A stretch of 64,000 bases of DNA. Source: Chloroflexi bacterium HGW-Chloroflexi-3. Lineage in GTDB: Bacteria; Chloroflexota; Anaerolineae; Anaerolineales; Anaerolineaceae. The stretch is from assembly GCA_002842045.1 (NCBI GenBank), contig PHBX01000010.1:6267-70266 (forward strand), read 5' to 3'. Below the pieces are notes generated by a model. The model was not told where the DNA came from. It ran no database searches and saw only the letters and a program-made list of their open reading frames with translations. Made by a program: the position numbers and the translations under genes. Positions 15,701-54,019 of the stretch are shown here, in pieces (position 1 is the first letter of the stretch; every line of letters begins with the position of its first letter).

Positions 15701-18700
15701 TGCAGGAGCATCACTCGCCCAGCCTTGAGGTCCCTGACCAAATTGCCAGTTGGAAACCATCGGTTTTATCTTGGGAGCACCTTCATGTTTGACACGCAAG
15801 TTATGCTGGACAACTTCCAATTCTGGTTGTTGATAACCGGACACAGAAGCCAGCCATTGTTGATATTGTCCCTGATTGACGCGTTCACCTACACCAGAAA
15901 CTTTTCTGATCAAAGTCATGGCGATTTGTGAACCAAAACCCGCCCCCAGGCGTAGTGAGAATTGCACCGGGTAATTACCACCTTTGGAAAGATTGAGATC
16001 CCCCAGTTCAGGATCAGGTTCAAAGTCATTGTCATAATGCGCGATGGGAGGAACCATTCCAAATTCCAGCGCTTTGACAGCCATCACATCCTCCACGCCC
16101 ACACCCATAGTATGACCTGTGAAGCCTTTCGTATTGGCGATGATGACTTTGTTAGCCTGATCTCCAAAGGTTTTCCGCAGCGCGTGAATTTCAGCAGCAG
16201 CACTTCCACCACGAGCCGGGGTGTAGGTCTCATGGGAGACGAATACGGTTCGGGCAGCGATTTCATGTCGGTTGATACCAAAGCGTTGTTCTGCCTGGGA
16301 AATCACGCGCTGCATGACTTCACTGACATGGGGAACATCCAGACGGGTGCCATGGAAGGCTGAATTGGCAATCTGGCTGGAGAGCAGCTCACAGATGCCA
16401 CGCATGCCACGTTCACGCACTGCGTCTTCGGCTTCCACCACCAGGGCGGCAGCACCCATCCCCATAATCATGCCATTACGGCGACGATCGAAGGGTAAAG
16501 CTGCCTGTCGTACATTTCCTTCGGTGGTTGCGGCTCCACTTGCCATCAAACCAGTACCGACCCAGTTGACCAGATTTCCACTGGTGACATCATCACCAGC
16601 AATAACGATCACTCTACGGCAGCGTCCGGCTCGAATCCAATCTTCAGCAATCGCGACCGCATGCGTGGTGGTGGCACAAGCTGCATTGACATACGTATTG
16701 GGTCCACGAGCACCGATGTGTTCGGCAAATTGGGAATGACCCATTGCCAGAACACGAAAGACAAAATGACGGTGGAAGTGGTAGTCGTTGGCTTGCAGTT
16801 GGGATTCCAATTGTTCCAATTTGTTTTGGAGTGTCTCGGACACCTTGCCATTGCTGCCATTCAACATCTGGATAATATCCAATAATTGTTGTTTTTGCGA
16901 CAGTAAATTCTGGAAATTGTAGTAATGATCGGCTTCTTCCGACATACGTTCCAGACCTGGGAAAGCTGATCCGAAGATGACTCCGGTTTCATCCTGCATG
17001 GCTTCTGGTAACATCCAGCGATTGGGTAGCAGGGTGCCTTTGCTGGTGGTACGATAATTCATTACCAAAGGAATCCCGGCATCCCGTAAGGCATCAATCC
17101 CGGCGGCGATCGCCAGTTGTGTACTGATATCGGTGGCATCCACACGATCTTCAGGTATGCCAAACTCATTGGTGGGATCAAAACCGCCACGCTGTCCGGC
17201 TAATTTAACGGTTGCATCCAGGTCGTCAATATCGACCATCATCGCGCCAGCTTCATGTTTAACCAGGCGGGTTACGCGTTTATCGAGCATATTCTCGCGT
17301 GTTTTTTGTGGAAAAGACTCAATTAACACTTCACCTTTGAGCATTCTTTGGACATTATCTTCAGCAAATACCAGACCATTCTTGCCAGGTAATCCCAGAC
17401 CAGCGCCACTGATGACGACTGACCCTGTGGGTGGAACACGACCGTCTATGATGGCTGGTTGAGGGACTGTAACATTTTCCGGTGGTTTGACAGATGGTAC
17501 CTGAACTCTCTCAGCAATGGCAGGTAAACCAGCGGCGAATAAAGCACACAGTGCTTCATTAAAGCTTGGTAATGCTCCTTTACGCGGGTGATTGGTTGCC
17601 AGCAGTGTTACTTCAGATTTGTCTTTGAAGATATCGCTGGTGAGGGCATTCAATACACGTTTCGGACCAACTTCCACAAAAATCCTGGCACCGTTTTCAT
17701 AAAGTTTTGTTGCGCCTTTGATGAATTGTACCGGGGAGGCTACCTGATCAGCCAGTAAATTCAGGATATCTTCGCGTTTGGATGGATACCAATCTCCGGT
17801 TACATTGGCAGCGACGGGGACTTTGGGTGCTTGCAGGTCCATACGATCGATGACCTTGCGTAGTGGCTGACTGGCTGGTGCTACAATTTTAGTGTGGAAA
17901 GCATGCGAAACCGGAATTTTGACGGCCTGGAAATTGGCTGCCATGAATGCCTGGATGGCAAGATCGACACCTTTGGTGGATCCGGCGATGACTGATTGCA
18001 ATGGACTGTTGATATTCGCCAGAACGACATATTCATCAATGCTGCCAAGAATTCGTTCCACTTCCTTGAGGGGAGCCGAGACAGCTGCCATGCAGCCATT
18101 ATCCTCCATGGCAACTTTCACCATTTCGCGACCACGAGCACTGACCACTTCTAGCGCTTCATCAAATCGTAAGACGCCAGCAGCTACCAATGCTGCATAT
18201 TCACCCAGACTGTGTCCGATGACCATATCAGGTTTAAATCCGTATTTTTCCAGGAGGCGTAAAAGAGCCACGTTGGCAGTCAACACAGCTGGTTGGGTGA
18301 TGGTGGTATCTTTAAGTTTCTGTTCTGCTTCTTTTAAACTAGCTTCATCACCTTCGGCGTATATGAAATGTGTGAGGGGTTTCCCGAGTAAAGGTTCCAT
18401 GACCCGGTCTGCTTCGACAAAGACTGCATCCACCACCGGTTCAATGGCGCGTAATTCACGCAGCATATTCACGTATTGAGAACCCTGCCCGGGAAAAAGG
18501 AAAGCTATCTTGCCTGGATCCCCGCTGCCACGATAGACTCCCTGAGCGGTCATGGCCTGCCACATGGAGGGATTATCCGAGTCAAAAGCTTTTAATGCCT
18601 TTTCTGCTCGTTTGATGAATTCTTCCTGATTACCGTAATCTATCACCAGACGTTCCGGCAAAGACAGCTGATTGGGTTCTGGTAATTGAGAAGGGGGCAA

Positions 18701-20983
18701 AGATCCCTGTTGTGCCTGGGATAATGAATTTTGAAGTTTTTCTTTTAATTCGGCTGTTGTGTTAGTAGATAGAAAATGCAAACCTCTAAAATGTTCTGCT
18801 GGTGCTGGTGAAGGTGGCACGGGTTCTGATGCGACCTCAATTGAGGGGGAGATTGCTGGTTGCCCACCAGCGTTTTCTTTGAAAAAGTTGATGACTTTTG
18901 CCAGTGTGTTGTAATCTGATAAGCGCAGATCTTCCCGGCGCGGGACGTTATAATGACCACGAATGGCGGCAAATAGTTCGGCCTGCTTGACCGTATCGAC
19001 ACCCAGATCGGCTTCCAGATCCAGTTCCAGATCGAGCATTTCCGCAGGATAACCAGTTTTCTCAGCCACCTGTTGAATCACAAATTGGGTGATCTCCATA
19101 TCGGATGCCTTTCCGGAGGCATTATTGGTTACTTGGGTTGGCGTAGTTTGCACGGACGCTGCTGGTTGGGGAGTTTTTTCACTCTGCATGGATGCATCCG
19201 AAGAGGTTGTATCTGCTCCTGATGCGTTATCCATCACAAACCCGATTACTTTTTCAAGGGTGTTGTAGTCGGATAATCTTAAATCATCACGCCGTGGAAT
19301 TCCGAAATGTTCGCGAATAGTGCGGAATAGTTCAGCTTGTTTGACGGTATCGACGCCTAAATCGGCTTCCAGATCTAATTCCACATCCAGCATTTCAGCA
19401 GGGTAACCAGTTTTCTCGCTGACAGCAGCCAGCACAAATTCTTTGACTGCTTGATTCTCTACGCGATGGGTTGAAGTGGCTATGACAGGTTCTGAGGTGA
19501 GAACCTGATCTACTTTATTAGAAATTGTTGCTGGGATACTAAAGGTGGGTTGGCGGTCTTCATGTAAACCTGGCACGTATTCCTCCATCACCACATGGAA
19601 ATTGGTACCTCCGAACCCAAATGAACTCACAGCTGCCCGGCGAATTTCACCGACGGGTTTTTCCCAGGGCTGTGCCTGAGTATTAACAAAGAAAGGCATA
19701 TGTTCAAAGTCGATGTTTGGGTTGGGTTTTTGAAAGTTAACCGAAGGGGGTAACATTTTATGATCCAAAGCAAAGGCTACTTTCGCCAGACCAGCAGCCC
19801 CGGCTGCGCTTTTAAGGTGACCAATATTGGATTTTACAGATCCTAAAGCGATAGTTCGTACAGGGATACCGAACTTCCCGAAGATTTCATTCAGGCTGTT
19901 GACCTCTACCACATCCCCAACACGGGTCGAGGTACCATGGCCTTCGATTAATCCAGCGCTGGCAGGCGTGACACCGGCATTTTTCCAGGCACGTTCGATG
20001 GCTCTTTGTTGTCCTAAGGGATTCGGTGCTGTAATGCCCTTGCCTTTGCCATCGGAACTGGAACCAATTCCGCGGATGACAGCATAGATCTTATCACCTT
20101 CACGTTCGGCATCGGTCAGGCGTTTGAGTATAAAGATGGCAGTGCCTTCACCCATCACGAAGCCATTGGCACCATCTGCATAAGGACGGGATCCATCCGC
20201 GCTGAGGGCGCCAATTTTAGAGAATTTGACATAGGATTCCGGACCCATATTGCGATCCACTCCACCTGTCAATACGGTATCAAACTGGTAATCATTCAGT
20301 CCTTGAATAGCTGCCTGGATTGCGGCTAGTGAAGATGCACAGGCAGCATCCGTGACGAAATTCGGTCCGCTGAAATTGAACACGTTGGCAATTCTGCCAG
20401 CAATAATGTTGGATAATTCACCGGACATGGTGTCTTCAGTGATATCCGGAATTAGTTGGCGAATATTATTCTGAAAACCATCAATCAACTGCTGTTGAAC
20501 TGCAGCAGGCAGGTTTCTAAAAGTATCGGATTGCTCCAATGCCTGAACATATTCAGGTAGGAGAATTCGCATGGTGGATCGATAATGACGTTCACCTGCG
20601 TTTGAATTCCCGATTATCACAGCCATTCTTTCCGGGTCTATCGTCCGCTCTGGATAACCATAATCACTTAGCGCTTGGTGGCTGGCTGCGATACCCCATT
20701 GTTGTGTACAATCCATTTGAGCTAAAACGGTAGGTGGAATGGGAATACGCATCTTCATGGGATTAAATTCAAAATTTGTTACCCAGGAGCCAATTTTGCT
20801 GTAGGTCTTGTCCGGTACCTTTGGGTCACTATGATAATAAAGATTGGTATCCCAACGATCTGTAGGAACATCTTTTATGGAATAATGCCCTTTGAGGATA
20901 TTTTCCCAAAAGAGCTTAGCGTTAGGAGCATCTGGCATGATCGCTCCGATCCCCACGATTGCTACTGGTTTTTGTTCTGACAT
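12764..20983 (-). CDS. type I PUFA-synthase-like polyketide/secondary-lipid megasynthase, KS-ACP-ACP-AT-KS-ACP-KR-DH
   Basis: 2739-aa ORF. Domain motifs were read directly from the translation and are listed in the sub-features below. No TE/R release domain and no FabA-type DH are seen. Confidence 0.9.
   Translation of the reverse strand: [2739 protein letters not shown]
12767..13681 (-). other. PKS-type (hot-dog) dehydratase domain, C-terminal
   Basis: [20 protein letters not shown] matches the HxxxGxxxxP motif (His codon 13583-13585). A second hot-dog half follows (..[13 protein letters not shown]..). Confidence 0.7.
13889..14602 (-). other. ketoreductase catalytic subdomain (SDR)
   Basis: [11 protein letters not shown] Rossmann motif, HAAGV, [19 protein letters not shown]. 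Confidence 0.8.
15362..15586 (-). other. carrier (ACP-like) domain 3, Thr at the Ser position
   Basis: [24 protein letters not shown]. Confidence 0.75.
15899..17425 (-). other. KS2 domain (Cys retained, so not a CLF)
   Basis: [11 protein letters not shown] (Cys codon 16676-16678), SHETYTP and TGHTMG supply the two His residues. A coiled-coil-like insertion sits in the N-terminal half. Confidence 0.7.
17609..18511 (-). other. acyltransferase (malonyl-CoA:ACP transacylase-like) domain
   Basis: [20 protein letters not shown] (18203-18217), SHAFHT. Confidence 0.85.
18872..19096 (-). other. carrier (ACP-like) domain 2, Thr at the Ser position
   Basis: [24 protein letters not shown] (Thr codon 18992-18994). 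Near-duplicate of domain 1. Confidence 0.75.
19226..19456 (-). other. carrier (ACP-like) domain 1, Thr at the Ser position
   Basis: [24 protein letters not shown]. The Thr codon is at 19346-19348, where the DSL-motif Ser is expected. Confidence 0.75.
19580..20971 (-). other. KS1 domain of megasynthase
   Basis: VAIVGIG.., active-site DAACASS (Cys codon 20339-20341), [23 protein letters not shown]. Confidence 0.85.
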
Positions 20984-21735: not shown

Positions 21736-23463
21736 ATGAACCCACCGACCTGGATTGGACAGACGTTAAGTGGCCGATATAAAATTGAAGCGTTATTAGG
21801 GCAGGGTGGTATGTCTGCCGTGTACAAGGCTTATGATCCCAACCTGAAACGCGTGGTGGCAGTGAAGCTGGTGCATTCGCATCTGAGCTCAGACCAGGAA
21901 TTCGTTAAACGTTTCGAAGAAGAAGCATCAGTGGTGGCTTCCTTGCGGCATCCCAATATTGTCCAGGTTTATGATTTCAACACTGATCAGGGGATTAATT
22001 ACATGATAATGGAATTTGTCCCGGGCGAGACCTTACAGGAACGCCTCAAACGACTAAACGAAAGTAATCGACGGATGTCCCTGGAAGAAGCCTTAAAGAT
22101 AACGATTAATATCTGTGATGCCTTAAGTTACGCCCACAAACGCGGTATGGTACACCGCGATATCAAGCCTGCCAATATTATGCTGGATGTCAACAATCAA
22201 GCCATCCTGATGGATTTTGGTATCGTGAAGATCCTGGGTGGGTCCTCCCATACTGTTACCGGAGCCGTGATGGGGACGGCGCGATACATGCCACCTGAGG
22301 TTGTGCGTTCGGAACCTGCTGACCAGCGTTCGGATATCTATGCCCTGGGGATTACCCTGTATGAAATGTTGAGTGGTAAGCCGCCTTTCGAAGCAAATTC
22401 AGTCATGACCGTCATGATGATGCATCTCAATGATCCGGTTCCCGATATTAGACCATTAAGGACCGATCTGGATCCACAATTGGTACCGGTATTAATGAAA
22501 GTGTTGGCCAAAGATCGCAACCAGCGCTATTCTTCCACGGATGAATTTTCTGCAGCGTTAAAAAGAATCCAGCACGGATTGGAGAACAATATTGGAATAG
22601 CACATGAAAATCAACCCACAGTTTTTCCTGCTTCCAAACCTGTTCCCTCCCAACCGGTTACGACACCAGAAAACAGAGTTTCACAAATCGGTCAAGGCAA
22701 TCCACCCAGCCGACCAAATCCTGGTTCGGTTCCCATGGGATATCAAAATACAGTTTACGATTCTTCCATCCGAACATCAGTTTCAGGATCCAATCCAGCC
22801 CTTCCTGTCCATCCTGTGTCCAATTTGACTTCAGAACCACAAAAGCAGAAATCAAAGCGTTGGATGTGGATCGTCGGGATAGGTGGTGCTGCATTCCTTC
22901 TCCTTGTTGGTGTAATTGTCATAGGTGGCATTCTTCTGTCCCAGATGAGGGACAGGCGGACTGCTGATGTTAAAGAGACTGAAAGTGTAGCTCTTGTGAT
23001 GCAAACCGAAAGTGCAAATATTTTCTCTGACAATCTGGTGGAAACCACCAACACGATTGCGCCTACCCGGAATCTACCAACGGCGACATTTCAGCCCTCT
23101 GCCACGTTTGTTGCTACCAAGGTACCCACCACACCAACGCCAACATACCCACCACTGTATGTGAAGATCAATGAAATCACATTCACCTCATCCAATCAAT
23201 ACTCGGTGGCATATGAAACTTTTGGATATACCGAAGTCTTGCCAGGTCAACACATCCATTTCTTCTTTGATACGGTTAAGCCGGAAAACGCCGGTATGCC
23301 AGGAACAGGTCCCTGGATTTTATACGGTGGGCCACGACCTTTCACCGGGTATAGTGTCTATCAAAAACCAAGAGATGCCACACAGATGTGCGCATTGGTT
23401 GCCAATGCCAATCATTCGATCATTTTAGAGAGCGGAAATTGTGTGGACTTGCCGGTAAATTAG
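21736..23463 (+). CDS. Hanks-type Ser/Thr protein kinase with TM segment and extracellular C-terminal domain
   Basis: 575 aa with canonical motifs: GQGGMSAVYKA, VAVK, HRDIKPANIML, DFGI, YMPPE. A Pro/Ser-rich linker and a TM segment (WMWIVGIGGAAFLLLVGVIVIGGILL) precede a ~130-aa C-terminal domain. Confidence 0.9.
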   Translation: MNPPTWIGQTLSGRYKIEALLGQGGMSAVYKAYDPNLKRVVAVKLVHSHLSSDQEFVKRFEEEASVVASLRHPNIVQVYDFNTDQGINYMIMEFVPGETLQERLKRLNESNRRMSLEEALKITINICDALSYAHKRGMVHRDIKPANIMLDVNNQAILMDFGIVKILGGSSHTVTGAVMGTARYMPPEVVRSEPADQRSDIYALGITLYEMLSGKPPFEANSVMTVMMMHLNDPVPDIRPLRTDLDPQLVPVLMKVLAKDRNQRYSSTDEFSAALKRIQHGLENNIGIAHENQPTVFPASKPVPSQPVTTPENRVSQIGQGNPPSRPNPGSVPMGYQNTVYDSSIRTSVSGSNPALPVHPVSNLTSEPQKQKSKRWMWIVGIGGAAFLLLVGVIVIGGILLSQMRDRRTADVKETESVALVMQTESANIFSDNLVETTNTIAPTRNLPTATFQPSATFVATKVPTTPTPTYPPLYVKINEITFTSSNQYSVAYETFGYTEVLPGQHIHFFFDTVKPENAGMPGTGPWILYGGPRPFTGYSVYQKPRDATQMCALVANANHSIILESGNCVDLPVN

Positions 23464-23694: not shown

Positions 23695-24972
23695 ATGGAA
23701 AAATTCCCCCCTCCCAATTATGTGCAGATAGCTTCTAATCTACCAGGCTTTGAGATTTATGCTCCTAAAGAAGAGAAGGAAGATGTTGTTCCTCTTAAGG
23801 AATTCAAGTGCCCCCAATGTGGAGCTGTAACCGCCTATTCCATTCTCCAAGCTGGATTGTCGTGTGAGCATTGTGGATATCAAGAGCGGGTGCAGGTATC
23901 GGTAGTGGGGCGAGCTGCTGATTCATTCGAATTCAGTCTGGATAACCTGGCTGTAGCAGCCCATGGTTGGGGTGATGACCGCAACGATTTACGTTGTTTA
24001 AGCTGTGGGGCGGAAATTACAGTGCCTGCTGATAGTATGGCGACGACCTGTGCTTTTTGTGGCTCGAATAAGGTGGTACAGGGTTCCGCCAATAAGGATC
24101 AACTGCGCCCGAAATTCTTGGTCCCCTTCAAAATTGATCCTCAGAAATGTCAACAAATCGCCAGAGAGTGGCTGGGCAGCAGTTGGATGGTACCCAAGGA
24201 ATTGAAACATTTTGCTGCCATGGATTCGTTCACAGCCATATACCTGCCATATTGGACATTCCATGCCATTACAAACGCTTCCTGGAAGGCAGAAGTGGGG
24301 CACCGTGTCAGTGAAAGTTATTATGATGCCAGTTCGAAGTCCTGGAAAACGCGTACAAAAATTGTCTGGCGTTGGGAATCTGGTAATGCCGGGCTGGACA
24401 TTGATGATTTGTTGGTAGCTGGCACCGGGCGGGTGAGTGCTCGACATCTGGGAAATGTAGATAATTTTAATCTTTCCGATATAGTGGCTTACGCTCCGGT
24501 CTTTTTGGCTGGCTTGCAAGCCAAAGGGTACGACAGACCGTTGGAGCCAGCCTGGGAAATAGCCCGGGAAGTGATGCGGGAGAAGACAAAAGATGCGTGT
24601 ATGCGCCAGGCAAGCACTTCCATGGTACGGAATTTCAGCATGAAGCTCGATTTTTCGGATGAAAGCTGGCGCTATCTCTTATTGCCAGTTTATCTGGCAG
24701 CGTATCAGTTTAATGGCAAAACGTATCATGCCATTGTCAACGGACAAACGGGAGATATTTCCGGCCAGCGTCCGGTGGATTGGAAGAAGATCTGGCTGGT
24801 TGTGGCCATGATCCTTGCGCCGGGTGTTTTGGCAGGATTAGTAGGATTATTGAGCATGTCTTCTTCTTCCGATGGTCTCACCATTGGCATGATCGGATTT
24901 GTTCTTCTGGTAATTGGGTTGATCATCTCGATTGTGATCTTTGTTAAGGCAGATAAGGAGGGGAAAGCATGA
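23695..24972 (+). CDS. zinc-ribbon membrane protein of unknown function (paralog A)
   Basis: 425 aa. Two CxxC..CxxC ribbons (CPQCG..CEHCG; CLSCG..CAFCG), a ~250-aa central domain and C-terminal hydrophobic segments. Shares YLPYW/YLPMW and ..VNGQTGDISGQRP / ..[13 protein letters not shown] blocks with the next ORF. Confidence 0.6.
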   Translation: MEKFPPPNYVQIASNLPGFEIYAPKEEKEDVVPLKEFKCPQCGAVTAYSILQAGLSCEHCGYQERVQVSVVGRAADSFEFSLDNLAVAAHGWGDDRNDLRCLSCGAEITVPADSMATTCAFCGSNKVVQGSANKDQLRPKFLVPFKIDPQKCQQIAREWLGSSWMVPKELKHFAAMDSFTAIYLPYWTFHAITNASWKAEVGHRVSESYYDASSKSWKTRTKIVWRWESGNAGLDIDDLLVAGTGRVSARHLGNVDNFNLSDIVAYAPVFLAGLQAKGYDRPLEPAWEIAREVMREKTKDACMRQASTSMVRNFSMKLDFSDESWRYLLLPVYLAAYQFNGKTYHAIVNGQTGDISGQRPVDWKKIWLVVAMILAPGVLAGLVGLLSMSSSSDGLTIGMIGFVLLVIGLIISIVIFVKADKEGKA

Positions 24973-26093
24973 CAGAACCATTGGAACAATCGAATCCGTA
25001 TGCGCTAACACTCTCATCCCTCGGTTGGGGGCAGGGGGTAGTCTGTCTAGTTTGTCAAAATTGTGATTGGCAATTTCTGGTTGGTACAGCGAATAAACCG
25101 CAGGATTGCCCACATTGTCATACCAATCAATTGGAAAAATACCAGGATGAAGATTTCAGTAAGATGGAGGATTTCATCAAACCACCCGAATTGTATCTGC
25201 CCTTCAGTTTTCCACAGGAACAATTGAACGAAAAAATCCAAAATTTTGCTAAAAATATCCCATTTGCACCGGATGATCTTCGGCTGGACAATTTACAAAC
25301 CCGCTTACAAAAAATCTATCTACCCATGTGGCTGGTCGATAGCCATGTTTCAGCAACCTGGCAGTCTGAATGCGGATATTACTATCAGGTCAAAAGCCAT
25401 CAGGAGAAATACAGTGGTGGTCGTTGGCAGACGCAGGAAGTGATTGAGACCCGTACACGTTGGGAGCCAAGATTGGGACGGTTGGGTAGAAGTTATCAAA
25501 ATATTGCTGCGCCAGCATTGGAAGAACATCGGCGCTTGATGGGAGCGCTTGGAAATTACGAATATAAAAAAGCACAACCGGTAACACCCCAATCATTATT
25601 GCAGGATTCAGTACAACCACCGCTGGTCAATATTCCCAGTCGCGATAAGGATGATGCCTGGCCAGACACGTTACCCCGTTTTCAGGAACAGGCTATGGAG
25701 GAAAGTCGCCAGGCATGTGCCGCAAACCAGATTCGTGAATTTCGCTGGAAGCCGGAATTTTCCAATCAAAACTGGACATTGTTCCTGTTACCGATGTGGA
25801 GTAGTTATTATCTGGATGATGAGAACAAACCACAATCCATTCTGGTCAATGGTCAGAGTGGACAGATGAGTGGAACCCGACGGGCATCCATGAAAAAGGC
25901 CAAAAAAATCTCCCTGTCCATTTTTATTGCAGCTTTGATTGCTTTTGCTCTGACTGTGGTGGTTGGATTGATATCCCTTTCTGTTCAAGATTTAGCGGTG
26001 ATAGCAGGTATTGGTATTATGATTTCATTGATCATTGCCCTGGCAGCCATCTATCCAATTGTGACGGCGTGGAATGTGAATAGAGATCGGTGA
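24969..26093 (+). CDS. zinc-ribbon membrane protein of unknown function (paralog B)
   Basis: 374 aa. One ribbon (CLVCQNC..CPHCH), a homologous central domain and C-terminal TM segments. Its start overlaps the stop of paralog A by 4 nt (ATGA). Confidence 0.6.
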
Positions 26094-48015: not shown

Positions 48016-50349
48016 TTGAATGCAATGCTGAAAAAAGCTTTGCCGTACCTGCTTATTGGTGTTTTGTTTTTTTCCATCATCATTGAGGCATTTGCCCAAT
48101 CACAACCAGATGTGCGAATTAATACCGTTTCCACCATAGAATTGCCAGATTCTGTCAATTTAAAGGTTTATTTTAATTTATTTGACAAACAAACTGGTCA
48201 GGCAATTACCGATATCACCCCGGAAACTGCTCAAATCACATTGTTGAATACCGGTTTGACAACCGGAGGGGTGATCAAGCAACCGGATATTCCCATTTAT
48301 ATCACCATGGTACTGGATGCAAGCGGGAGTATGTCCGGTGCGCAGGCGCAACTCAAAGATGCAGCCAAACTGGCATTAACCAACGTACCCAATGATGCCT
48401 TTTTCTCGGTGGTTCAATTTGATGAAGAAATCGTACTTTTGCAGGATTTCACCGAGAATCAATCTGCCATCAGCTTCGCTATTGATCAGTTGAAGGTGAC
48501 GGGAAGAGGAACCTGCCTTTATGATGCTGCTTATACCGCAGTGGAAGCCATGGAGAAAGCGCCAGTTGGCAGGCGTGCGGTGATTCTCTTTACCGATGGG
48601 AAAGATGAAACCAAAGAAGGAAAAGTGTGCAGCCAGCATACTTACCGGGAACTGGTTGATAAAGCCATGAAAGCCCAGGTTCCGATCCACACGATTGGAT
48701 TATCTGTTTCAGCAGGAAACATCAACGCGGTTGAGTTGGAAAATATGGCTGCCAGCACCGGTGGATTTTCGGCTATCGGAAACGAAAGCCAGCTGAAGAA
48801 TTCCTTTGAGCAAATTATGCTCGGGTTGAAAGCCCAATGGATGGTGGAATCCAGTGTCTATCCCAGGCAGGGTGATAATAACGCTGTTTTAACCATGAAT
48901 TTGAAAGATGCAGGAGAAACTAGCACAGCATTTATCGTCACATCCAGTAAAGAATACCCGGGTCCCCCTAGCCCAGTGTCGGCTAAGCTGGATGGGTTTG
49001 CTTTACGTCCCGAAACAATGACTTATGATGTACAGATCTCGCTTACCTCGCCGGAGATGGTTAATTATTTGCGCGTAGCCATTTGGGAAAAAGAAGGTGG
49101 ATCCAAAATAACCGAATTTATCTTTGAAAACCTGGCAAGTTTCAACACACTCAATATCCCAACCAATGCATTGACCGCCGGTCGTGATTACGAAATGAGG
49201 ATCGTCGCTACCGATAAAGAAAATAATTTCCCCTTTGCGATCGTGAAGGACGATCAGGGGAAAGCATTCACCGAATTAATTCACGAATTCAAATTTGATC
49301 CATCCGGTGTTTTGCCAAAGTTGAGTATTCAATCGGTGATTCAGGACAACAACGATCTGGTGATTCAAATAGCCACCACCAACCCGCTCCTGGTGAAAGG
49401 ATATGATGGGTGGCTAATTGATGAAGAAACCAACACGGTTGTTCCCAATTCAACCTTCAGCAGTGATGTGCTTCCGAATGGCAGTGGTTCGATCACCATT
49501 CCGATGGTGGAAGCAAAAGTTCCATCAGGAAAATACACCATTCTGGTGAGGGCTCTGGGGGAAGGAACCAGTGTATTTGCGTCCCAGCAATACAATGGGG
49601 TGGTGTACCAGACCAAGAAAGTATCGATATTTGAGCGGGTTTTTTCAGCCTTAAGAGCATCACCAATTTTCTTCTACATCATTCTTGGAATTATTCTGGT
49701 CGTAATAGCCTTCCTGATGATCTATAACTGGAGAGAGAAATCTCTCTCTGGAACGCCGGTCATGCAGGGTCGATTAGGTGGCCAAATGAAAGCCAAACGA
49801 GGGATAAAAGAACCTTCCCCGTTTGCGGATCACGAACCCATTCCTGGAGCTTCGGTGGCACGACCAGTCCAACCTTCTCCAGTAAAAATACCTGGACCGC
49901 AAGCTTATGATTTACCCGTGATGCCTACACCGGTAGCAAAACCAACACCGGCAAGTGTACCACCCGATCAGCTGGATCAAACAATCGTCGGGGCACCCCC
50001 TATGGGAGATGCGACGCTGGTTTCACCCGCCATCAAATTGCCCTCGTTATCTGTGGTAAACGCACCACCAGGCGTATTATCACCTGGGCAAAAAATCAGT
50101 GTGCAGCAATTACCGTTTACGATCGGACGAGTAGGTGCCATGTTGACCGTTAGCGAGGCCAGTGTTTCCCGCTTGCATGCTCAAATTTCAATGGATCCTC
50201 AAACCAAGCGATTCATGATTACGGATATGAATAGCAGTAATGGAACCCGGGTAAATGGAACTCCATTGACCCCTGGCCAATCGTCGTTCTTAAATCATGG
50301 CAGTCGTATTCAAATTGGACCCAATGTAGAAATCGTTTTTGAAAATTAA
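48016..50349 (+). CDS. bitopic vWA - Ig-like region - TM - Pro-rich linker - FHA protein
   Basis: 777 aa. Start is TTG 48016 or ATG 48025, after AGGAGG. Signal/TM N-terminus and a vWA domain with MIDAS DASGSMSG (about 48316-48337). A beta-rich middle and a TM segment (IFFYIILGIILVVIAFLMIY) follow. The C-terminal FHA reads FTIGRV..VSRLHAQI..SSNGTRVNG. Confidence 0.8.
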   Translation: MNAMLKKALPYLLIGVLFFSIIIEAFAQSQPDVRINTVSTIELPDSVNLKVYFNLFDKQTGQAITDITPETAQITLLNTGLTTGGVIKQPDIPIYITMVLDASGSMSGAQAQLKDAAKLALTNVPNDAFFSVVQFDEEIVLLQDFTENQSAISFAIDQLKVTGRGTCLYDAAYTAVEAMEKAPVGRRAVILFTDGKDETKEGKVCSQHTYRELVDKAMKAQVPIHTIGLSVSAGNINAVELENMAASTGGFSAIGNESQLKNSFEQIMLGLKAQWMVESSVYPRQGDNNAVLTMNLKDAGETSTAFIVTSSKEYPGPPSPVSAKLDGFALRPETMTYDVQISLTSPEMVNYLRVAIWEKEGGSKITEFIFENLASFNTLNIPTNALTAGRDYEMRIVATDKENNFPFAIVKDDQGKAFTELIHEFKFDPSGVLPKLSIQSVIQDNNDLVIQIATTNPLLVKGYDGWLIDEETNTVVPNSTFSSDVLPNGSGSITIPMVEAKVPSGKYTILVRALGEGTSVFASQQYNGVVYQTKKVSIFERVFSALRASPIFFYIILGIILVVIAFLMIYNWREKSLSGTPVMQGRLGGQMKAKRGIKEPSPFADHEPIPGASVARPVQPSPVKIPGPQAYDLPVMPTPVAKPTPASVPPDQLDQTIVGAPPMGDATLVSPAIKLPSLSVVNAPPGVLSPGQKISVQQLPFTIGRVGAMLTVSEASVSRLHAQISMDPQTKRFMITDMNSSNGTRVNGTPLTPGQSSFLNHGSRIQIGPNVEIVFEN

Positions 50350-50367
50350 TAGATTGGAAAGTGAAAT

Positions 50368-51375
50368 ATGGCTGATAAAACAATACTTGATATCCAGGCA
50401 ATTGATGCCCTCCGTAAAAAATTTCAGAATGAAGGGGAAGAACTTGCGGAATTAACCGTTAGAACCCGACAAAAAGTGCACAATCTGCAAAAGGATTGGA
50501 TTGGGCTGGGATCGGATGCATTCTTCGATGAAATGGAAATGGTGCTTTTGCCTGCCATGAAGCGTTTGTTCGAAGCCATGATGCGCTCCTCAGATGTTCT
50601 GGGAGATATTAAGAAAATCTACCGAAATGCTGAAGATCAAAGTGCCAATTTCTTTAAAGGTGATTTTGAAAATGTCAATTTAGGCACGACTGATTTTGGT
50701 GCCGGGCAATTTGGCGGAGCAGGTGGTTCTGGTGTGAATTTAGGTCAGACCGATTTCGGGGCAGGACAATTTGGTGCTACAGGTGGCGGCGGAGGAGCTG
50801 GTTTAGGCGAAACAGACTTCGGTGCCAGCCAATTTGGTGGGTCTGGGGGTACGCAGGGAGGAACCGGATTGGGTGAGACTGATTTCGGAGCAGGTCAGTT
50901 TGGTGGCCAACAAGGTGCTACCCCCGGTGGCGATTCAGGATCTGGACAAGCCCCACAGCCACAGCAAGCAACCCAACCACTTGAGACAAAAATGGATTCC
51001 TCAGCAGGCGCAGGTAGTGGCGGAGGAGGCACTGGGGGTGGTGATAGTTCCGGGATGCAAGGGGACCTGAACAATATGGGAACCGGACTGGGTGGTTCGC
51101 AGTCCTCCTCGGGATTTAGCGGTGGAGGTGGCACTTCCGGAGGTGGGTCCGGAACACCTATGTCTGATCATGTTTATCAAAGTGTTGGTTCATCATCTCC
51201 TGGTGGAGGTGTTTCATCTGGACCATCCGGTGCACCAGCTCCCAGCAGCAGCCCACCACCGCCTTCTGAGGGTGGTGAGGGCATCTCGACGGCTGGAACA
51301 GCTGGCGTAGTTGGTGGCGTTGGTGCTGCGGCGGCGGCAGCCAAAAAAGTTGTCAAAGACAAAGATAACAAATAG
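50368..51375 (+). CDS. WXG100-like protein with long Gly-rich repeat tail
   Basis: The first ~100 aa are paralogous to the next gene (W-I-G in ..KDWIGLGSDAFFDEM..). A YRNAE (YxxxE) motif lies at 50620-50634. Four LG-x-TDFGAGQFGG repeats, a Gly/Ser-rich tract and a hydrophobic Ala/Gly/Val C-terminus follow. Confidence 0.65.
   Translation: MADKTILDIQAIDALRKKFQNEGEELAELTVRTRQKVHNLQKDWIGLGSDAFFDEMEMVLLPAMKRLFEAMMRSSDVLGDIKKIYRNAEDQSANFFKGDFENVNLGTTDFGAGQFGGAGGSGVNLGQTDFGAGQFGATGGGGGAGLGETDFGASQFGGSGGTQGGTGLGETDFGAGQFGGQQGATPGGDSGSGQAPQPQQATQPLETKMDSSAGAGSGGGGTGGGDSSGMQGDLNNMGTGLGGSQSSSGFSGGGGTSGGGSGTPMSDHVYQSVGSSSPGGGVSSGPSGAPAPSSSPPPPSEGGEGISTAGTAGVVGGVGAAAAAAKKVVKDKDNK
50677..50907 (+). repeat. 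four imperfect in-frame tandem repeats (about 57-66 nt) encoding NLG(T/Q/E)TDFGAGQFGG + Gly spacer
   Basis: Read directly from the sequence: NLGTTDFGAGQFGG / NLGQTDFGAGQFGA / LGETDFGASQFGG / LGETDFGAGQFGG. Confidence 0.8.
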
Positions 51376-51524
51376 CAATCATCGCAGATTTTTCAATAAA
51401 CCCAAACAGGAGGTAACCAGAAAAAGAGTTTTCTCAATCCCAATCCAAAAAATTATGTTGTTTATAAATCTGAACTAAGTGAAATACAACAAACAATTAA
51501 TTGTCAATTTAGAAAGGATTAAAA

Positions 51525-51827
51525 ATGGCCGATAGAACTGAACTTAATGGCGAACAATTGGCACAAATGATGAAGAAATTTCAAAGTGAAGCGGATGAAT
51601 TAAACCAACTGCTTGGCCAAACCCGGAATAAAATTGGTACTTTAAGAAGTAGTGGCTGGGTAGGACGTGGATCAGACCAATTCTACAATGAGATGGAATC
51701 GCTGGTGTTGCCTGCTGTACAACGGTTAGTTGCTGCGCTTAATGCTGCATCCAACCAGGTGAATGCGATCATGAAGATTTATGATGATGCGCAGAATCAA
51801 GCGCAATCTTTGTATAAATTAGAGTAG
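51525..51827 (+). CDS. WXG100-family (ESAT-6-like) protein
   Basis: 100 aa, predicted helix-turn-helix with central W-V-G (..SSGWVGRGSDQFYNEM..). RBS AAAGGA lies upstream. Confidence 0.7.
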   Translation: MADRTELNGEQLAQMMKKFQSEADELNQLLGQTRNKIGTLRSSGWVGRGSDQFYNEMESLVLPAVQRLVAALNAASNQVNAIMKIYDDAQNQAQSLYKLE

Positions 51828-51858
51828 AACAAAAAACCATCCATAAAGGAGATAAACA

Positions 51859-52155
51859 ATGGCTGACAAGATTAAACTAAATTATCCACAGATGGAAGAA
51901 ATGGCGCAACACATGAAGGCTGTTTCACAACGATTGCTGCAGACCACTCGCCTGGCACGCTCGATTGCACAGGAAATGCAAGGAGGTGCTCTGGTTGGTG
52001 ATGCGGGCGAAGCCTTCGTGAATGCTTTGAACAGCGCATTTGTTCCCGGTGTGACTAAATTGAGCCAGAAATTTGATGAAGTATCAAAAGATATCACACA
52101 AGCAATTAACGACATGAAATCTGCCGATAGTCGCTCTCGCTCAGAATTCAGATAG
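51859..52155 (+). CDS. WXG100-like small helical protein (degenerate motif L-V-G)
   Basis: 98 aa with the same length and layout. The central ..GGALVGDAGEAFVNAL.. lacks the Trp. RBS AAGGAG. Confidence 0.5.
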   Translation: MADKIKLNYPQMEEMAQHMKAVSQRLLQTTRLARSIAQEMQGGALVGDAGEAFVNALNSAFVPGVTKLSQKFDEVSKDITQAINDMKSADSRSRSEFR

Positions 52156-52171
52156 GATTTGGAGGATTATT

Positions 52172-52504
52172 ATGAACTTTATTCTAAAATTGGTATATTC
52201 AGCAGTAAATGGCGTTATGGGTCAAATTAAAAAACTGTTGAATCAAATCACTTCCGAAATCACTTCCCCATTACGGGGGATGGTCCAACAAGTCGTTGGT
52301 GGCGTTTGGAAGGGAGATGGAGCAACACGCTTTGTGCAAGAAATGCAAACATTGGTTATTCCAGCGTTGTTATCCCTGGTTGGGGTCAATACCAGTTTTG
52401 TTAACGCGCTTCAAAAATCAACTGAGATATTTCGAAATGCCGACAAACAGGCCACTTCCAAAGCTAATGAATTACTGGACATTTTTGGCGGTATATTCAA
52501 ATAA
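52172..52504 (+). CDS. WXG100-like small helical protein
   Basis: 110 aa with central W-K-G (..GGVWKGDGATRFVQEM..). RBS GGAGGA. Confidence 0.55.
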   Translation: MNFILKLVYSAVNGVMGQIKKLLNQITSEITSPLRGMVQQVVGGVWKGDGATRFVQEMQTLVIPALLSLVGVNTSFVNALQKSTEIFRNADKQATSKANELLDIFGGIFK

Positions 52505-52532
52505 CCTGCAATAAAAGAAAAGGAGATGCAAA

Positions 52533-52832
52533 ATGGCTCAAGAAGTATATATGGACGTTCCAGCAGTCCAAAAAATCGCTAGTAATTTTGGCAAATTTGG
52601 CCAGACATTGAAGCGTATTGCCAAAGGTTTGGAAACTGCCATTATGGTATTGAAGGCTACCGCATTTGTAGGCATGATCGGTAACCTGGCAGTGGCTTCT
52701 TACCTCGAAAGGATCAAACCCCGGGTTGAAAAATTAGCCGAAGACATGATTGAACTTCAACATGATGTCAATGCAGCCGTCAAACATTATCAAACCGGTG
52801 ATTTGAGTGGTTCAGCTCGCTTCCGCAGTTGA
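52533..52832 (+). CDS. small helical protein, possible divergent WXG100-type partner
   Basis: 99 aa. No WXG; a hydrophobic central turn (..ATAFVGMIGNLA..). RBS AAGGAG. Assigned by size and position only. Confidence 0.4.
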   Translation: MAQEVYMDVPAVQKIASNFGKFGQTLKRIAKGLETAIMVLKATAFVGMIGNLAVASYLERIKPRVEKLAEDMIELQHDVNAAVKHYQTGDLSGSARFRS

Positions 52833-52861
52833 TCATTTTATTCATGAATAAATAGAGACAG

Positions 52862-52898
52862 TTAGCAAGTATGTGATTTGATATCACATACTTGCTAA
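52862..52898 (+). terminator. strong hairpin between substrate genes and machinery genes (terminator/attenuator candidate)
   Basis: Perfect 16-bp inverted repeat TTAGCAAGTATGTGAT / ATCACATACTTGCTAA with a 5-nt loop, followed by AAAAATTATTATTGTTTT. Confidence 0.5.
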
Positions 52899-52933
52899 AA
52901 ATTATTATTGTTTTCCAGAGGAAGTAAGGCATT

Positions 52934-54001
52934 ATGAATCGAATTTGTCTCAAGTGTAATGTCATCTCTCAGGATTTCAATCTCTGGTGCCAGGAGAAAT
53001 ATTGCCCGGCGGAAAATGCGACCGAAATTTTCAATAATGGAGAATGGTTTGGTATCTTTGAAATCGTTCAGCCATTATTGATCCTTCGTTCTGCGATTGT
53101 ATACCAGGCACGCCGGGAAGAAGAGATTGTTTTTCTAAAAATTGCCAATACAGGTTGCGAGGACAAATTAAGGCAGGAAGCCATCGCCTTTTACCAGCTC
53201 GCAAAAGCCGGTCAACATCCGTTGTTACCTATATTATTACCAGCCCATCCTCAAAGCACCATCGCCCAACACCCCTATGGTTGGACAGTGATTCAGGGAA
53301 AAGTAAAATATTATTCAGTATTTAAATTCGTTGAAGGGGAAGTTCTCAGGAATTATTTATATAAAAATCCACAACCCTGGTTTCAACATGTAGGTTGGAT
53401 CGGACTCAGTGTCAGTGACGTGGTTTATTATTTACATCGCGCTGGAAAGATTCACCTCTGTTTGAACCCGGATGTTGTTTACTTACGTTTTGATAAGCAG
53501 GGAATTCCAAGGCCCATGTTACTGGACCTGGGGGTAGGGGATTTAAGCAACAATATCTCACAAATCTGGAACGACCAGTACAATCTACCCGCTTATACGC
53601 CGCCAGAAATTCTGAAAAACGATAATCAGGTCTCGCATGCTGCTGATGTGTATGGGATCGGTTTACTGATGTACGAAATGTTAACTGGCCATCCTGCTTA
53701 TGAATATCACTTAAAAAAAGATGATACGGTTGCCAATATGGTAAAAAGTGGCGTATTTAAACCCACAGGTAGAATTGATCTTAAAGAAATTCCTGCAATC
53801 GTGGAGAAAGCCATCAATGTTCACCCTCAAGCACGTTTTACGGATGTTTTATCCCTGGTTAATACGTTAAAACCATATTTTCCCCCCATTCCTGCGGAGA
53901 AAAAATCGAGAGGTATCAATTGGAAATTGGTTTTCATCGTCCTGGCGGCTTTATTGGCCATTTCATTAATTTTAAGTTTTGCAGTTTCACTGATGCAATG
54001 A
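52934..54001 (+). CDS. zinc-ribbon + degenerate protein-kinase-like domain + C-terminal TM (predicted pseudokinase; EssB/YukC-like by inference)
   Basis: 355 aa. N-terminal CLKC..C..C. Kinase-like blocks: VFLKIA, EAIAFYQL, YYLHRAGKIH, DLG, YTPPE, DVYGIGLLMYEMLTG. There is no Gly-rich loop. The catalytic loop reads HLCLNPD (53453-53473) instead of HRDxKPxN. TM segment: LVFIVLAALLAISLILSFAV. Confidence 0.6.
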   Translation: MNRICLKCNVISQDFNLWCQEKYCPAENATEIFNNGEWFGIFEIVQPLLILRSAIVYQARREEEIVFLKIANTGCEDKLRQEAIAFYQLAKAGQHPLLPILLPAHPQSTIAQHPYGWTVIQGKVKYYSVFKFVEGEVLRNYLYKNPQPWFQHVGWIGLSVSDVVYYLHRAGKIHLCLNPDVVYLRFDKQGIPRPMLLDLGVGDLSNNISQIWNDQYNLPAYTPPEILKNDNQVSHAADVYGIGLLMYEMLTGHPAYEYHLKKDDTVANMVKSGVFKPTGRIDLKEIPAIVEKAINVHPQARFTDVLSLVNTLKPYFPPIPAEKKSRGINWKLVFIVLAALLAISLILSFAVSLMQ

Positions 54002-54019
54002 TGATCGGGGAGGTATAAA

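Follow-up and report, generated by a model that had tools for sequence, protein, structure and literature searches.

A tail-anchored Hanks-type pseudokinase encoded next to the EssC-like ATPase in type VII secretion clusters of Chloroflexota, a likely analogue of EssB

Introduction

In the type VII secretion system b (T7SSb) of Bacillus subtilis, cryo-electron microscopy showed the small protein YukD clamped between the FHA domains and the DUF domain of the ATPase YukB (EssC), which holds the FHA domains in place so that the YukC (EssB) pseudokinase dimer can bind the tip of FHA2 through its alpha-C helix; in the absence of YukD, recruitment of YukC is impaired (PMC12637312). The FHA domains of T7SSb EssC lack a phosphothreonine (pThr) site (PMC11217815). 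Here we analyse a stretch of 64,000 nucleotides (nt) from the Chloroflexi bacterium HGW-Chloroflexi-3 (GenBank contig PHBX01000010.1, positions 6,267 to 70,266), referred to below as the window, in which a pseudokinase with a single C-terminal transmembrane (TM) helix is encoded directly upstream of an EssC/EccC-type ATPase. This protein is most likely a core membrane subunit of the T7SS of Chloroflexota (Anaerolineae), in the place held by EssB/YukC in the firmicute T7SSb, and would thus be an EssB analogue.

Kinase-like membrane components, named TscD, TsdD, TseD and TshM, occur in several other T7SS subtypes and share no sequence similarity with one another (PMC11217815). Those of T7SSc, T7SSd and T7SSe (TscD, TsdD and TseD) are membrane Ser/Thr kinases, of which TscD has a conserved active site, while TscD and TsdD have helical extracellular regions (PMC11217815; Garrett, Higginson & Palmer 2024). 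T7SSc also contains an FHA-less ATPase, a vWA protein and a YukD-like protein, and an analogy of such T7SS variants with the type VI secretion system (T6SS) has been drawn (PMC11217815). The subtypes have been catalogued only in Bacillota and Actinomycetota, and Chloroflexota are not covered (PMC11217815). In the open full-text literature, combining T7SS/WXG100 or pseudokinase with Chloroflexi/Chloroflexota retrieved only passing mentions of WXG100/ESX-like genes in the phylum. T7SSs outside Actinomycetota and Bacillota are essentially uncharacterised, and the Chloroflexota layout is undescribed.

Sequence and predicted structure of the pseudokinase

The pseudokinase gene (Table 1) is preceded by an AGGAAG/AAGG ribosome-binding region, and its product matches the Pfam Pkinase profile (PF00069) with 53.2 bits (E = 3.8e-14), exceeding the gathering score of 31.7. 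A first-pass annotation, made from the sequence alone, had listed a series of Hanks-kinase motifs (the Lys of VFLKIA, the alpha-C Glu, DLG, PPE and DVYGIG..YEMLTG) together with an N-terminal CxxC..C..C ribbon, all of which are present in the translation. The VAIK-type Lys is K69 and its alpha-C partner E82; the DFG-equivalent, metal-binding motif is D198-L-G200; PPE comprises residues 223–225, with the APE motif retained as P224-E225; and the DVYGIG..YEMLTG motif, which begins at D238, is accompanied by R301. The same annotation had described the Gly-rich loop as missing and the catalytic loop as HLCLNPD instead of HRDxKPxN. Both statements hold: no GxGxxG loop was found in the protein, where QPLLILRSAIVY occupies that stretch, and in the best PDB sequence matches HLCLNPD aligns onto HRNLKPEN of CaMKII. 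Judged by the features of active kinases, the protein has the VAIK Lys, the alpha-C Glu and the DFG Asp, and lacks the Asp base of HRDxKxxN and the GxGxxG loop.

The protein was modelled with AlphaFold2 from 21 sequences (predicted local distance difference test score, pLDDT, 76; predicted template modelling score, pTM, 0.75). The model has a two-lobed kinase fold followed by a terminal helix at residues 330–353, with low confidence in the zinc (Zn) ribbon (residues 1–28) and at residues 255–281. The terminal helix corresponds to the single TM helix with almost no tail that had been noted from the sequence, and is preceded by KKSRGINWK.

Family size and residue conservation

A search over 5.8 billion proteins returned 322 relatives, the best 120 of which are all ~355 residues long and 61–97% identical to the query; the pseudokinase of the metagenome-assembled genome (MAG) HGW-Chloroflexi-2 is 97% identical to that of the window. 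Two search patterns applied to GTDB contigs, with one genome per species, gave 107 places encoding a relative, and 80 loci were kept. Almost all of these are from Chloroflexota of the Anaerolineae type (Anaerolineales, Ardenticatenaceae, Thermoflexus, Aquidulcis and Leptovillus). Searching 1.84 billion cluster representatives (50% identity) with a profile gave 182 matches at E ≤ 1e-30, mostly full-length (330–430 residues), and the names seen among the distant representatives are also Chloroflexota/Anaerolineae (Aggregatilineaceae, Ardenticatenaceae and others). The family boundary is sharp: members score at least 299 bits against a profile of distant members, followed by a 225-residue fragment at 126 bits and by ordinary kinases at no more than 110 bits. 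Two entries carry other labels, the locus L057 (JAGXRB010000116.1) being labelled a Bacteroidetes MAG and the protein P0320 Oceanobacillus sp.; since both sit in typical Chloroflexota-type clusters, these are probably binning or annotation errors.

Conservation was counted in 76 species orthologues and in 126 family representatives clustered at 50% identity. All 76 orthologues retain K69, E82, D198, G200, the PE dipeptide, D238 and R301. Among the representatives, K69 is present in 124 (98%), E82 in 125 (99%), D198 in 120 (95%) and G200 in 119, and PE, D238 and R301 in ~90–95%. Each of the four ribbon cysteines occurs in 75/76 orthologues and in 104–116 of the representatives (83–92%), the misses being mostly N-terminally truncated sequences. 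The catalytic-Asp column is occupied by C (61), N (12) or S (3) in the orthologues, and by N (42), A (32), G (16), S (11), C (9) or T (4) in the representatives; Asp is found in none of the orthologues and in only two representatives, and is thus absent from the other 124. The catalytic-loop Lys column holds S/N/T and the Asn column D/E. The spread of residues in the catalytic-base column argues that the loss of the base is ancestral and unconstrained, and the conservation pattern likewise indicates that the nucleotide-site residues are under selection. By these residues the protein is classed as a true pseudokinase that may have retained nucleotide binding. A special role for Cys176, which is invariant in the close clade, was considered and rejected, as the column is N/A/G/S/C/T family-wide.

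This pattern of degeneration differs from those described for bacterial pseudokinases. The 2025 atlas of bacterial serine/threonine kinases (STKs) lists seven pseudokinase families, in each of which some or all members have the VAIK Lys substituted, and the ActPs-type families lose this Lys (bioRxiv 10.1101/2025.01.12.632604). The Chloroflexota family, in contrast, keeps the VAIK Lys and DxG and has lost the HRD Asp, and by description it is not obviously one of the seven.

The retained residues could alternatively mark an atypical active kinase, or an ATP-driven switch, that phosphorylates a T7SS component and so makes the pThr for FHA proteins, as a counterpart of TscD in T7SSc or PpkA in T6SS. 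The near-invariance of the VAIK Lys, alpha-C Glu, DxG and APE fits such an enzyme, as do the FHA partners with intact pThr pockets in the same operon and the lack of any other kinase in the window cluster. Some proteins with Asn in the HRD motif, such as HER3 and JAK2 JH2, bind ATP and show trace activity. The catalytic-base column is, however, unconstrained and includes catalysis-incompetent residues (Ala/Gly in many members), S/N/T stands in place of the catalytic-loop Lys, a Gly-rich loop is missing, and canonical kinases are found in the same clusters, arguing for a different role. We regard an enzymatic function of this kind as quite unlikely.

Relationship to EssB/YukC

The Chloroflexota protein resembles EssB/YukC in having a catalytically dead cytoplasmic kinase fold followed by one TM helix, in gene position (essB lies directly upstream of essC in Listeria and B. 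mycoides) and in cluster content, with EssC, a YukD-like protein, FHA domains and WXG100 genes. It differs in giving a Pkinase score, in retaining Lys/Glu/DxG/APE, in its N-terminal Zn ribbon and in the lack of an extracellular domain. A further difference concerns the FHA domains, which are part of EssC in T7SSb; here they are found on the YukD and VWA proteins and keep their pThr residues.

A Foldseek search of the PDB gave Mycobacterium tuberculosis PknB (1o6y) as the best match (E = 7e-14, TM-score 0.74, target-normalised). The best 50 matches listed are all active kinases (PknB, then PknA, Aurora and CaMKII), and EssB/YukC is not among them. The Pfam YukC profile (PF10140) did not match the pseudokinase at E ≤ 10, compared with 470 bits for a Listeria EssB control. 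The hhalign probability was 3% against Listeria EssB and 1% against a two-sequence EssB profile (Listeria and B. mycoides), but 99% between the pseudokinase family and the canonical kinase encoded at 21736..23463 of the window (Pkinase, 192 bits), which the first-pass annotation had aptly chosen as a contrast. An extracellular C-terminal domain was not found after the TM helix, neither in the window protein nor in the family: a single C-terminal TM helix is predicted in 119/125 other full-length representatives, with tails of 0–23 residues. Membership of the EssB/YukC family was therefore rejected on the negative profile results (Pfam YukC and hhalign) and the missing extracellular domain, and the protein is not to be filed as EssB.

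These results separate two parts of the original proposal, namely that the gene is a functional counterpart of EssB, caught in a form that still shows its kinase ancestry. The functional part is favoured by topology, gene position, catalytic degeneracy and co-occurrence with EssC, whereas a specific relation to the EssB/YukC family finds no backing in the YukC profile, hhalign, Foldseek or the domain architecture. The protein is indeed still recognisable by Pkinase, but since there is no EssB signal, PknB/PknA are nearest and the extracellular domain is lacking, a "caught" EssB is only one possibility, and the data agree equally well with a Hanks kinase having been recruited independently. Two findings had been named that would jointly speak against the proposal. 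The first, structural similarity to ordinary kinases at least as close as that to EssB, was obtained; the second, a lack of co-occurrence with EssC-like genes, was not (see below).

One alternative, which concerns origin and not mechanism, is that the family is a true orthologue or the ancestral form of EssB/YukC, with EssB descended from such a Hanks-type T7SS pseudokinase. It agrees with the shared position directly upstream of essC, the shared topology and the same trio of pseudokinase, FHA and YukD modules as in T7SSb; moreover, the sole stretch aligned by hhalign, although not significant, sets LHLNLxPD on FFLHPDNL of EssB. The profile comparisons speak against it. So does the recruitment of TscD, TsdD, TseD and TshM without mutual similarity (PMC11217815): because kinase-like components were recruited in several T7SS subtypes, convergence is plausible. 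Moreover, the proteins outside the family that are most closely related to it are ordinary active kinases, and some of these share its N-terminal ribbon. Near matches of this type (P0336, P0339, P0356 and P0366) are active Hanks kinases of ~356 residues that lack a TM helix and have a CxxC...C Zn ribbon at the N-terminus. The combination of ribbon and Hanks kinase is therefore a pre-existing architecture, and these proteins possibly represent the ancestral architecture of the pseudokinase. On this evidence we find an orthologous or ancestral relation of the family to EssB doubtful.

Co-occurrence with EssC

In the window, as first noted, the pseudokinase gene lies just upstream of the ATPase gene. 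Among the 80 GTDB loci, 73 have an EssC homologue in the fetched stretch, in 69 cases within 400 bp of the pseudokinase gene (median gap 95 bp), and four of the remaining seven are contig ends. The reverse search gave the same picture: in metagenome loci seeded with EssC and with upstream DNA available, the pseudokinase is directly upstream in 11/11. In a divergent clade of ~45% identity, the pseudokinase gene is on the opposite strand, between the EssC and WXG100 genes, and in two loci of this clade (L063 and L064) it lies ~7 kb away from EssC, though within the cluster. Association with EssC therefore survives rearrangement, as adjacency is kept despite the inversion. Six distant family members with 26–35% identity were also looked up (BLASTP; tblastn to the window protein). 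An EssC-like gene is adjacent in 6/6, and an FHA-domain gene follows EssC in the five loci whose contig extends past it.

The two proteins also diverge in parallel. In the main clade the median identity to the window is 68.6% for the pseudokinase and 70.9% for EssC, and in the divergent clade 46.4% and 45.8%, respectively. The other cluster genes are less conserved (YukD-FHA and VWA-FHA at ~48% and ~35%, WXG100-domain genes at ~30–50% identity). Across the family, the pseudokinase gene is almost always found beside the gene for the EssC-like ATPase, within a T7SS cluster. The possibility that it is an ordinary signalling pseudokinase lying beside T7SS genes by chance is most improbable, given that adjacency persists from 97% to 26% identity, despite an inversion and whether the search starts from the pseudokinase or from EssC, and that conservation of the pseudokinase tracks that of EssC.

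FHA domains and phosphothreonine signalling

The FHA domains of the cluster are found in a YukD-FHA-FHA fusion encoded directly after EssC and in a VWA-TM-FHA membrane protein (Table 1). In FHA1 of the YukD fusion, G117, R118, S143 and N165 are present in 49/49 orthologues, R144 in 47/49 and H146 in 48/49. In FHA2, G266-R267, S279-R280-x-H282, S301 and N303-G304 are present in 39/39 orthologues carrying this domain, and the same pThr-binding motifs can be recognised in the FHA domain of the VWA protein. In Foldseek, the FHA model most closely resembles FHA domains that bind pThr, namely DgcB with a phosphopeptide, GarA/OdhI, EmbR and FhaA with Rv3910 (3oun).

No canonical kinase or phosphatase is encoded in the T7SS cluster of the window. 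In this genome such genes are found elsewhere, while in many relatives they are inside the cluster. An additional canonical kinase with HRDxKPxN lies within 10 kb of the pseudokinase in 17 GTDB loci. Four of the six distant clusters (L083, L103, L104 and L105) have a canonical Ser/Thr kinase beside the pseudokinase, some with PD40/Tricorn or SH3 domains, and three (L083, L104 and L105) also have a PP2C phosphatase; by gene content, these three appear to hold a full kinase/phosphatase/FHA module. As the pseudokinase coexists with a canonical kinase, it is not simply the signalling kinase of the cluster gone dead. The retained Lys/Glu/DxG, the pThr-competent FHA partners and the nearby kinase and PP2C genes are features unlike EssB, and point to phospho-signalling.

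The MviN (Rv3910)–FhaA pair, which appears among the structural matches of the FHA domains, offers a model for such signalling. In 2012 Gee et al. reportedly found that PknB phosphorylates the pseudokinase domain of MviN, recruiting FhaA. By analogy, a canonical Hanks kinase would phosphorylate a Thr of the Chloroflexota pseudokinase, and the resulting pThr would recruit the YukD-FHA and/or VWA-FHA protein, making the pseudokinase a regulated assembly switch and not a passive scaffold. The invariant GR/SRxH/N residues in FHA1, and in FHA2 where present, agree with this model, as do the structural proximity to pThr-binding FHA domains, including that of FhaA in complex with the intracellular domain of Rv3910, and the canonical kinases and PP2C in many related clusters. 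In the 126 representatives, however, there is no Thr, or Ser/Thr, column at 50% or 70% conservation; T222 and T278 are conserved in the close clade only; and the window cluster has neither a kinase nor a phosphatase. Since no Ser/Thr is conserved family-wide, the pseudokinase is not an evident pThr ligand for the FHA domains. The MviN system belongs to another pathway, the regulation of a cell-wall precursor flippase, and its pseudokinase is fused to a polytopic transporter. Phosphorylation of the pseudokinase itself is thus conceivable but not likely; it would refine the docking model described below, with which it is compatible.

Proposed role of the pseudokinase

With moderate confidence, we propose that the pseudokinase serves as a tail-anchored docking subunit without catalytic activity. 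It would connect EssC to the FHA partners, probably in a conformation stabilised by nucleotide, and Thr phosphorylation from a separate kinase and PP2C would gate assembly. The C-terminal helix would hold the kinase-like domain and the Zn ribbon at the cytoplasmic face of the membrane, beside EssC. The kinase-like domain is predicted to be incapable of phosphate transfer, because it has no catalytic Asp, catalytic-loop Lys or Gly-rich loop. Since the Lys–Glu pair and DxG are kept, the domain probably adopts an active-like, perhaps nucleotide-bound, conformation, and in this state would provide a platform for docking, coupling EssC with the YukD-FHA(-FHA) and VWA-TM-FHA proteins. Gating by Thr phosphorylation, with a separate canonical Ser/Thr kinase and PP2C, is probable because the FHA domains keep all pThr-binding residues. 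The kinase fold, its catalytic degeneracy, the conserved architecture and the genomic link to the T7SS are shown by the data, whereas docking to the FHA domains and EssC, nucleotide binding and phospho-gating are inferred.

Several observations weigh against a docking subunit equivalent to EssB. Besides the low hhalign probabilities and the missing extracellular domain, three loci with adequate flanks (L065, L068 and L069) have no EssC in reach, although WXG100 genes are still adjacent. The conserved Lys/Glu/DxG could alternatively reflect residual or atypical enzymatic activity. Finally, a conserved phospho-acceptor Ser/Thr was found neither in the pseudokinase family nor in the EssC N-terminus.

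The surrounding T7SS cluster

The pseudokinase gene is part of a compact same-strand block (48016–59620), bounded upstream by a YigZ gene and downstream by a catalase-peroxidase gene on the opposite strand. The block qualifies as a T7SS locus by its EssC/EccC ATPase with three FtsK/SpoIIIE domains, its five WXG100-domain genes and its YukD/EsaB-like ubiquitin-fold component. YukC, EsaA, EssA, an Ecc-type component and a phosphatase were not detected within it, and neither was an EspG-like gene.

The EssC-like gene starts with TTG, 18 nt past the pseudokinase stop and behind a GGAGG motif. Its product scores 733 bits against TIGR03928 (EssC), just missing the cut-off of 778, 347.8 bits against EccCb, which passes the cut-off of 346.55, and 459 bits against EccCa; no FHA domain was found in it by Pfam. 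In the protein encoded next, Pfam detects two FHA domains (E = 2.5e-27), and YukD scores 25.6 bits, just below the gathering score of 27; homologues carry a precomputed match to PF08817, and the AlphaFold2 model shows a beta-grasp fold at residues 4–81 in addition to two FHA domains. The corresponding protein of the divergent clade has ~205 residues, with YukD and FHA1 only, and in locus L085 a separate ORF (open reading frame) of 90 residues lies between EssC and the FHA gene. Because YukD and FHA are fused in the gene just after EssC, the pseudokinase, FHA and YukD modules of T7SSb are all present here. The fusion is an indication of the Rosetta-stone type that YukD and FHA act together, and the pseudokinase would be their natural third partner.

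The VWA-TM-FHA gene was found in ~66/80 loci by tblastn, with a full-length orthologue cluster in 61 loci, and also in distant clusters. We hypothesize that its product may contribute the extracellular portion missing from the pseudokinase. The array of four WXG100 genes is kept in nearly all loci. The fifth WXG100 protein has a Gly/Ser-rich tail with ~4 repeats of G(L/N)G(E/Q/T)TDFGA(G/S)QFGG (a 60-nt tandem repeat at 50673–50786); it loosely recalls Gly-rich T7SS substrates and is a candidate secreted substrate. The hairpin that separates the WXG100 array from the pseudokinase gene has the same stem with compensatory changes in L001–L007, and other GC-rich hairpins are found in the same place in L012–L016. 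The hairpin probably acts as a partial terminator or attenuator, setting how strongly substrates are expressed relative to the machinery.

Elsewhere in the window, the canonical kinase (575 residues) lies 25 kb from the T7SS cluster, followed by ORFs within 23695–26093 of 425 residues (weak zinc-ribbon match) and 374 residues (no Pfam match). A very long ORF of 2739 residues occupies 12764–20983 on the minus strand.

Table 1. Positions of the pseudokinase, its motifs and the neighbouring T7SS features in the window, and of kinase and PP2C genes in distant clusters (positions of the respective locus)
Feature	Position	Strand	Details and basis
Pseudokinase gene	52934..54001	+	ATG start, 355 residues; ORF and translation, Pfam, AlphaFold2, Foldseek
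Four-Cys ribbon C5-x2-C8-x10-C19-x4-C24, pseudokinase N-terminus	52946..53005	+	Low pLDDT in AlphaFold2 model
K69, VAIK-type beta3 Lys in VFLKIA	53138..53140	+	Partner alpha-C E82 at 53177..53179
Degenerate catalytic loop H174-L-C-L-N-P-D180 instead of HRDxKxxN	53453..53473	+	Alignment to CaMKII/PknB
D198-L-G200, DFG-equivalent metal-binding motif	53525..53533	+	Conserved in family
Single C-terminal TM helix, residues ~331–352	53924..53989	+	Kyte-Doolittle peak 2.96 at 333–351; 4-residue tail
VWA-TM-FHA membrane protein: signal peptide, extracytoplasmic VWA, TM ~565–585, Pro-rich linker, cytoplasmic FHA	48016..50349	+	Pfam VWA, FHA; sequence
WXG100 N-terminal domain with Gly/Ser-rich repetitive C-terminus	50368..51375	+	TIGR03930, 45.5 bits
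Four WXG100 genes	51525–51827, 51859–52155, 52172–52504, 52533–52832	+	Pfam WXG100, TIGR03930
Perfect 16-bp hairpin TTAGCAAGTATGTGAT-loop-ATCACATACTTGCTAA	52862..52898	+	Between last WXG100 gene and pseudokinase gene; terminator-like scan
EssC/EccC-type T7SS ATPase, 1526 residues: two N-terminal TM helices, three FtsK/SpoIIIE domains	54020..58600	+	Pfam, TIGR
YukD-like beta-grasp and two FHA domains, 338 residues	58604..59620	+	Start 3 nt past EssC stop
Kinase/PP2C genes, distant cluster L083	1848–4232, 14123–16669		
Kinase gene, distant cluster L103	1379–4237		
Kinase/PP2C genes, distant cluster L104	1074–4151, 13279–15234, 15347–18166		
Kinase/PP2C genes, distant cluster L105	18094–19020, 19090–21126		

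Comparison with other kinase-containing systems

The comparisons with TscD, TsdD, TseD and TshM are made by description. Like TscD, TsdD and TseD, the pseudokinase is a T7SS-encoded membrane protein with a kinase domain and EssB-like topology, but unlike TscD it has neither an intact active site nor an extracellular region. The vWA protein of T7SSc, TscE, is cytoplasmic, whereas the VWA domain here is extracytoplasmic and connected to both a TM helix and an FHA domain. T7SSc clusters also hold a PPM phosphatase and an EspG-like chaperone, both of which are lacking in the window cluster, with PP2C in some relatives only. TshM of T7SSh (PMC11217815) shares with the pseudokinase a weak kinase similarity, a single C-terminal TM helix without an ectodomain and an FHA-less ATPase. 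TshM is, however, "not confidently predicted" as a kinase, while the Chloroflexota family passes the Pfam threshold; T7SSh also differs in lacking FHA partners and in having an EspG-like chaperone and adjacent Tad pilus genes, neither of which was found among the scanned genes of the Chloroflexota cluster.

PknB and PknA, the best structural matches, also have a kinase domain followed by a single TM helix. The pseudokinase differs from them in lacking the catalytic Asp, the catalytic-loop Lys and Asn, the Gly-rich loop and an extracellular sensor domain. The threonine-phosphorylation pathway of T6SS, with a membrane kinase, a PP2C phosphatase and Fha, is a further parallel, since the Chloroflexota secretion cluster holds pThr-competent FHA proteins and, in relatives, a kinase and PP2C. 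T6SS is a different secretion machine, and the conserved kinase-like protein of the Chloroflexota clusters is dead and occurs in addition to an active kinase.

The best EssC match in a plasmid collection, from Brevibacillus laterosporus (L081; NZ_CP011076.1, 1191080–1218601), is FHA-less and 29% identical. Around it lie genes for an EspC-like protein, a small VWA protein, YukD and two unknown products; the 1.38-Mb record, with 16 features in all, carries no annotation over this stretch. No kinase was found within 27 kb of it; the layout is T7SSc-like, without TscD in reach. The B. mycoides and Listeria EssC matches in the same collection are ordinary T7SSb.

Implications

The core of the Chloroflexota T7SS comprises EssC without FHA domains, the tail-anchored pseudokinase, YukD fused to FHA, a VWA-TM-FHA protein and multiple WXG100 proteins, often with a kinase and PP2C. 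The YukD-FHA fusion agrees independently with the contacts among YukD, FHA and pseudokinase seen in the B. subtilis structure. The Anaerolineae system might even represent an ancestral, monoderm-type T7SS design, in which a Hanks relative, pThr-reading FHA domains, YukD and a kinase/PP2C pair control EssC, with the firmicute EssB as an eroded descendant and the phospho-blind FHA domains of EssC derived from YukD-FHA. This scenario is speculative and, in our estimate, rather unlikely. If true, the family would be the missing link that explains why T7SSb has a pseudokinase, and nucleotide or phospho control of T7SS assembly would be predicted to be ancestral.

A T7SS layout with a recognisable Hanks pseudokinase at the EssB position extends an established theme and does not break it; it is coherent and well supported by comparative genomics. 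As the Chloroflexota pseudokinase is still readable as a Hanks kinase, with a pattern of degeneration of its own, it offers a route to the origin of EssB-type pseudokinases.

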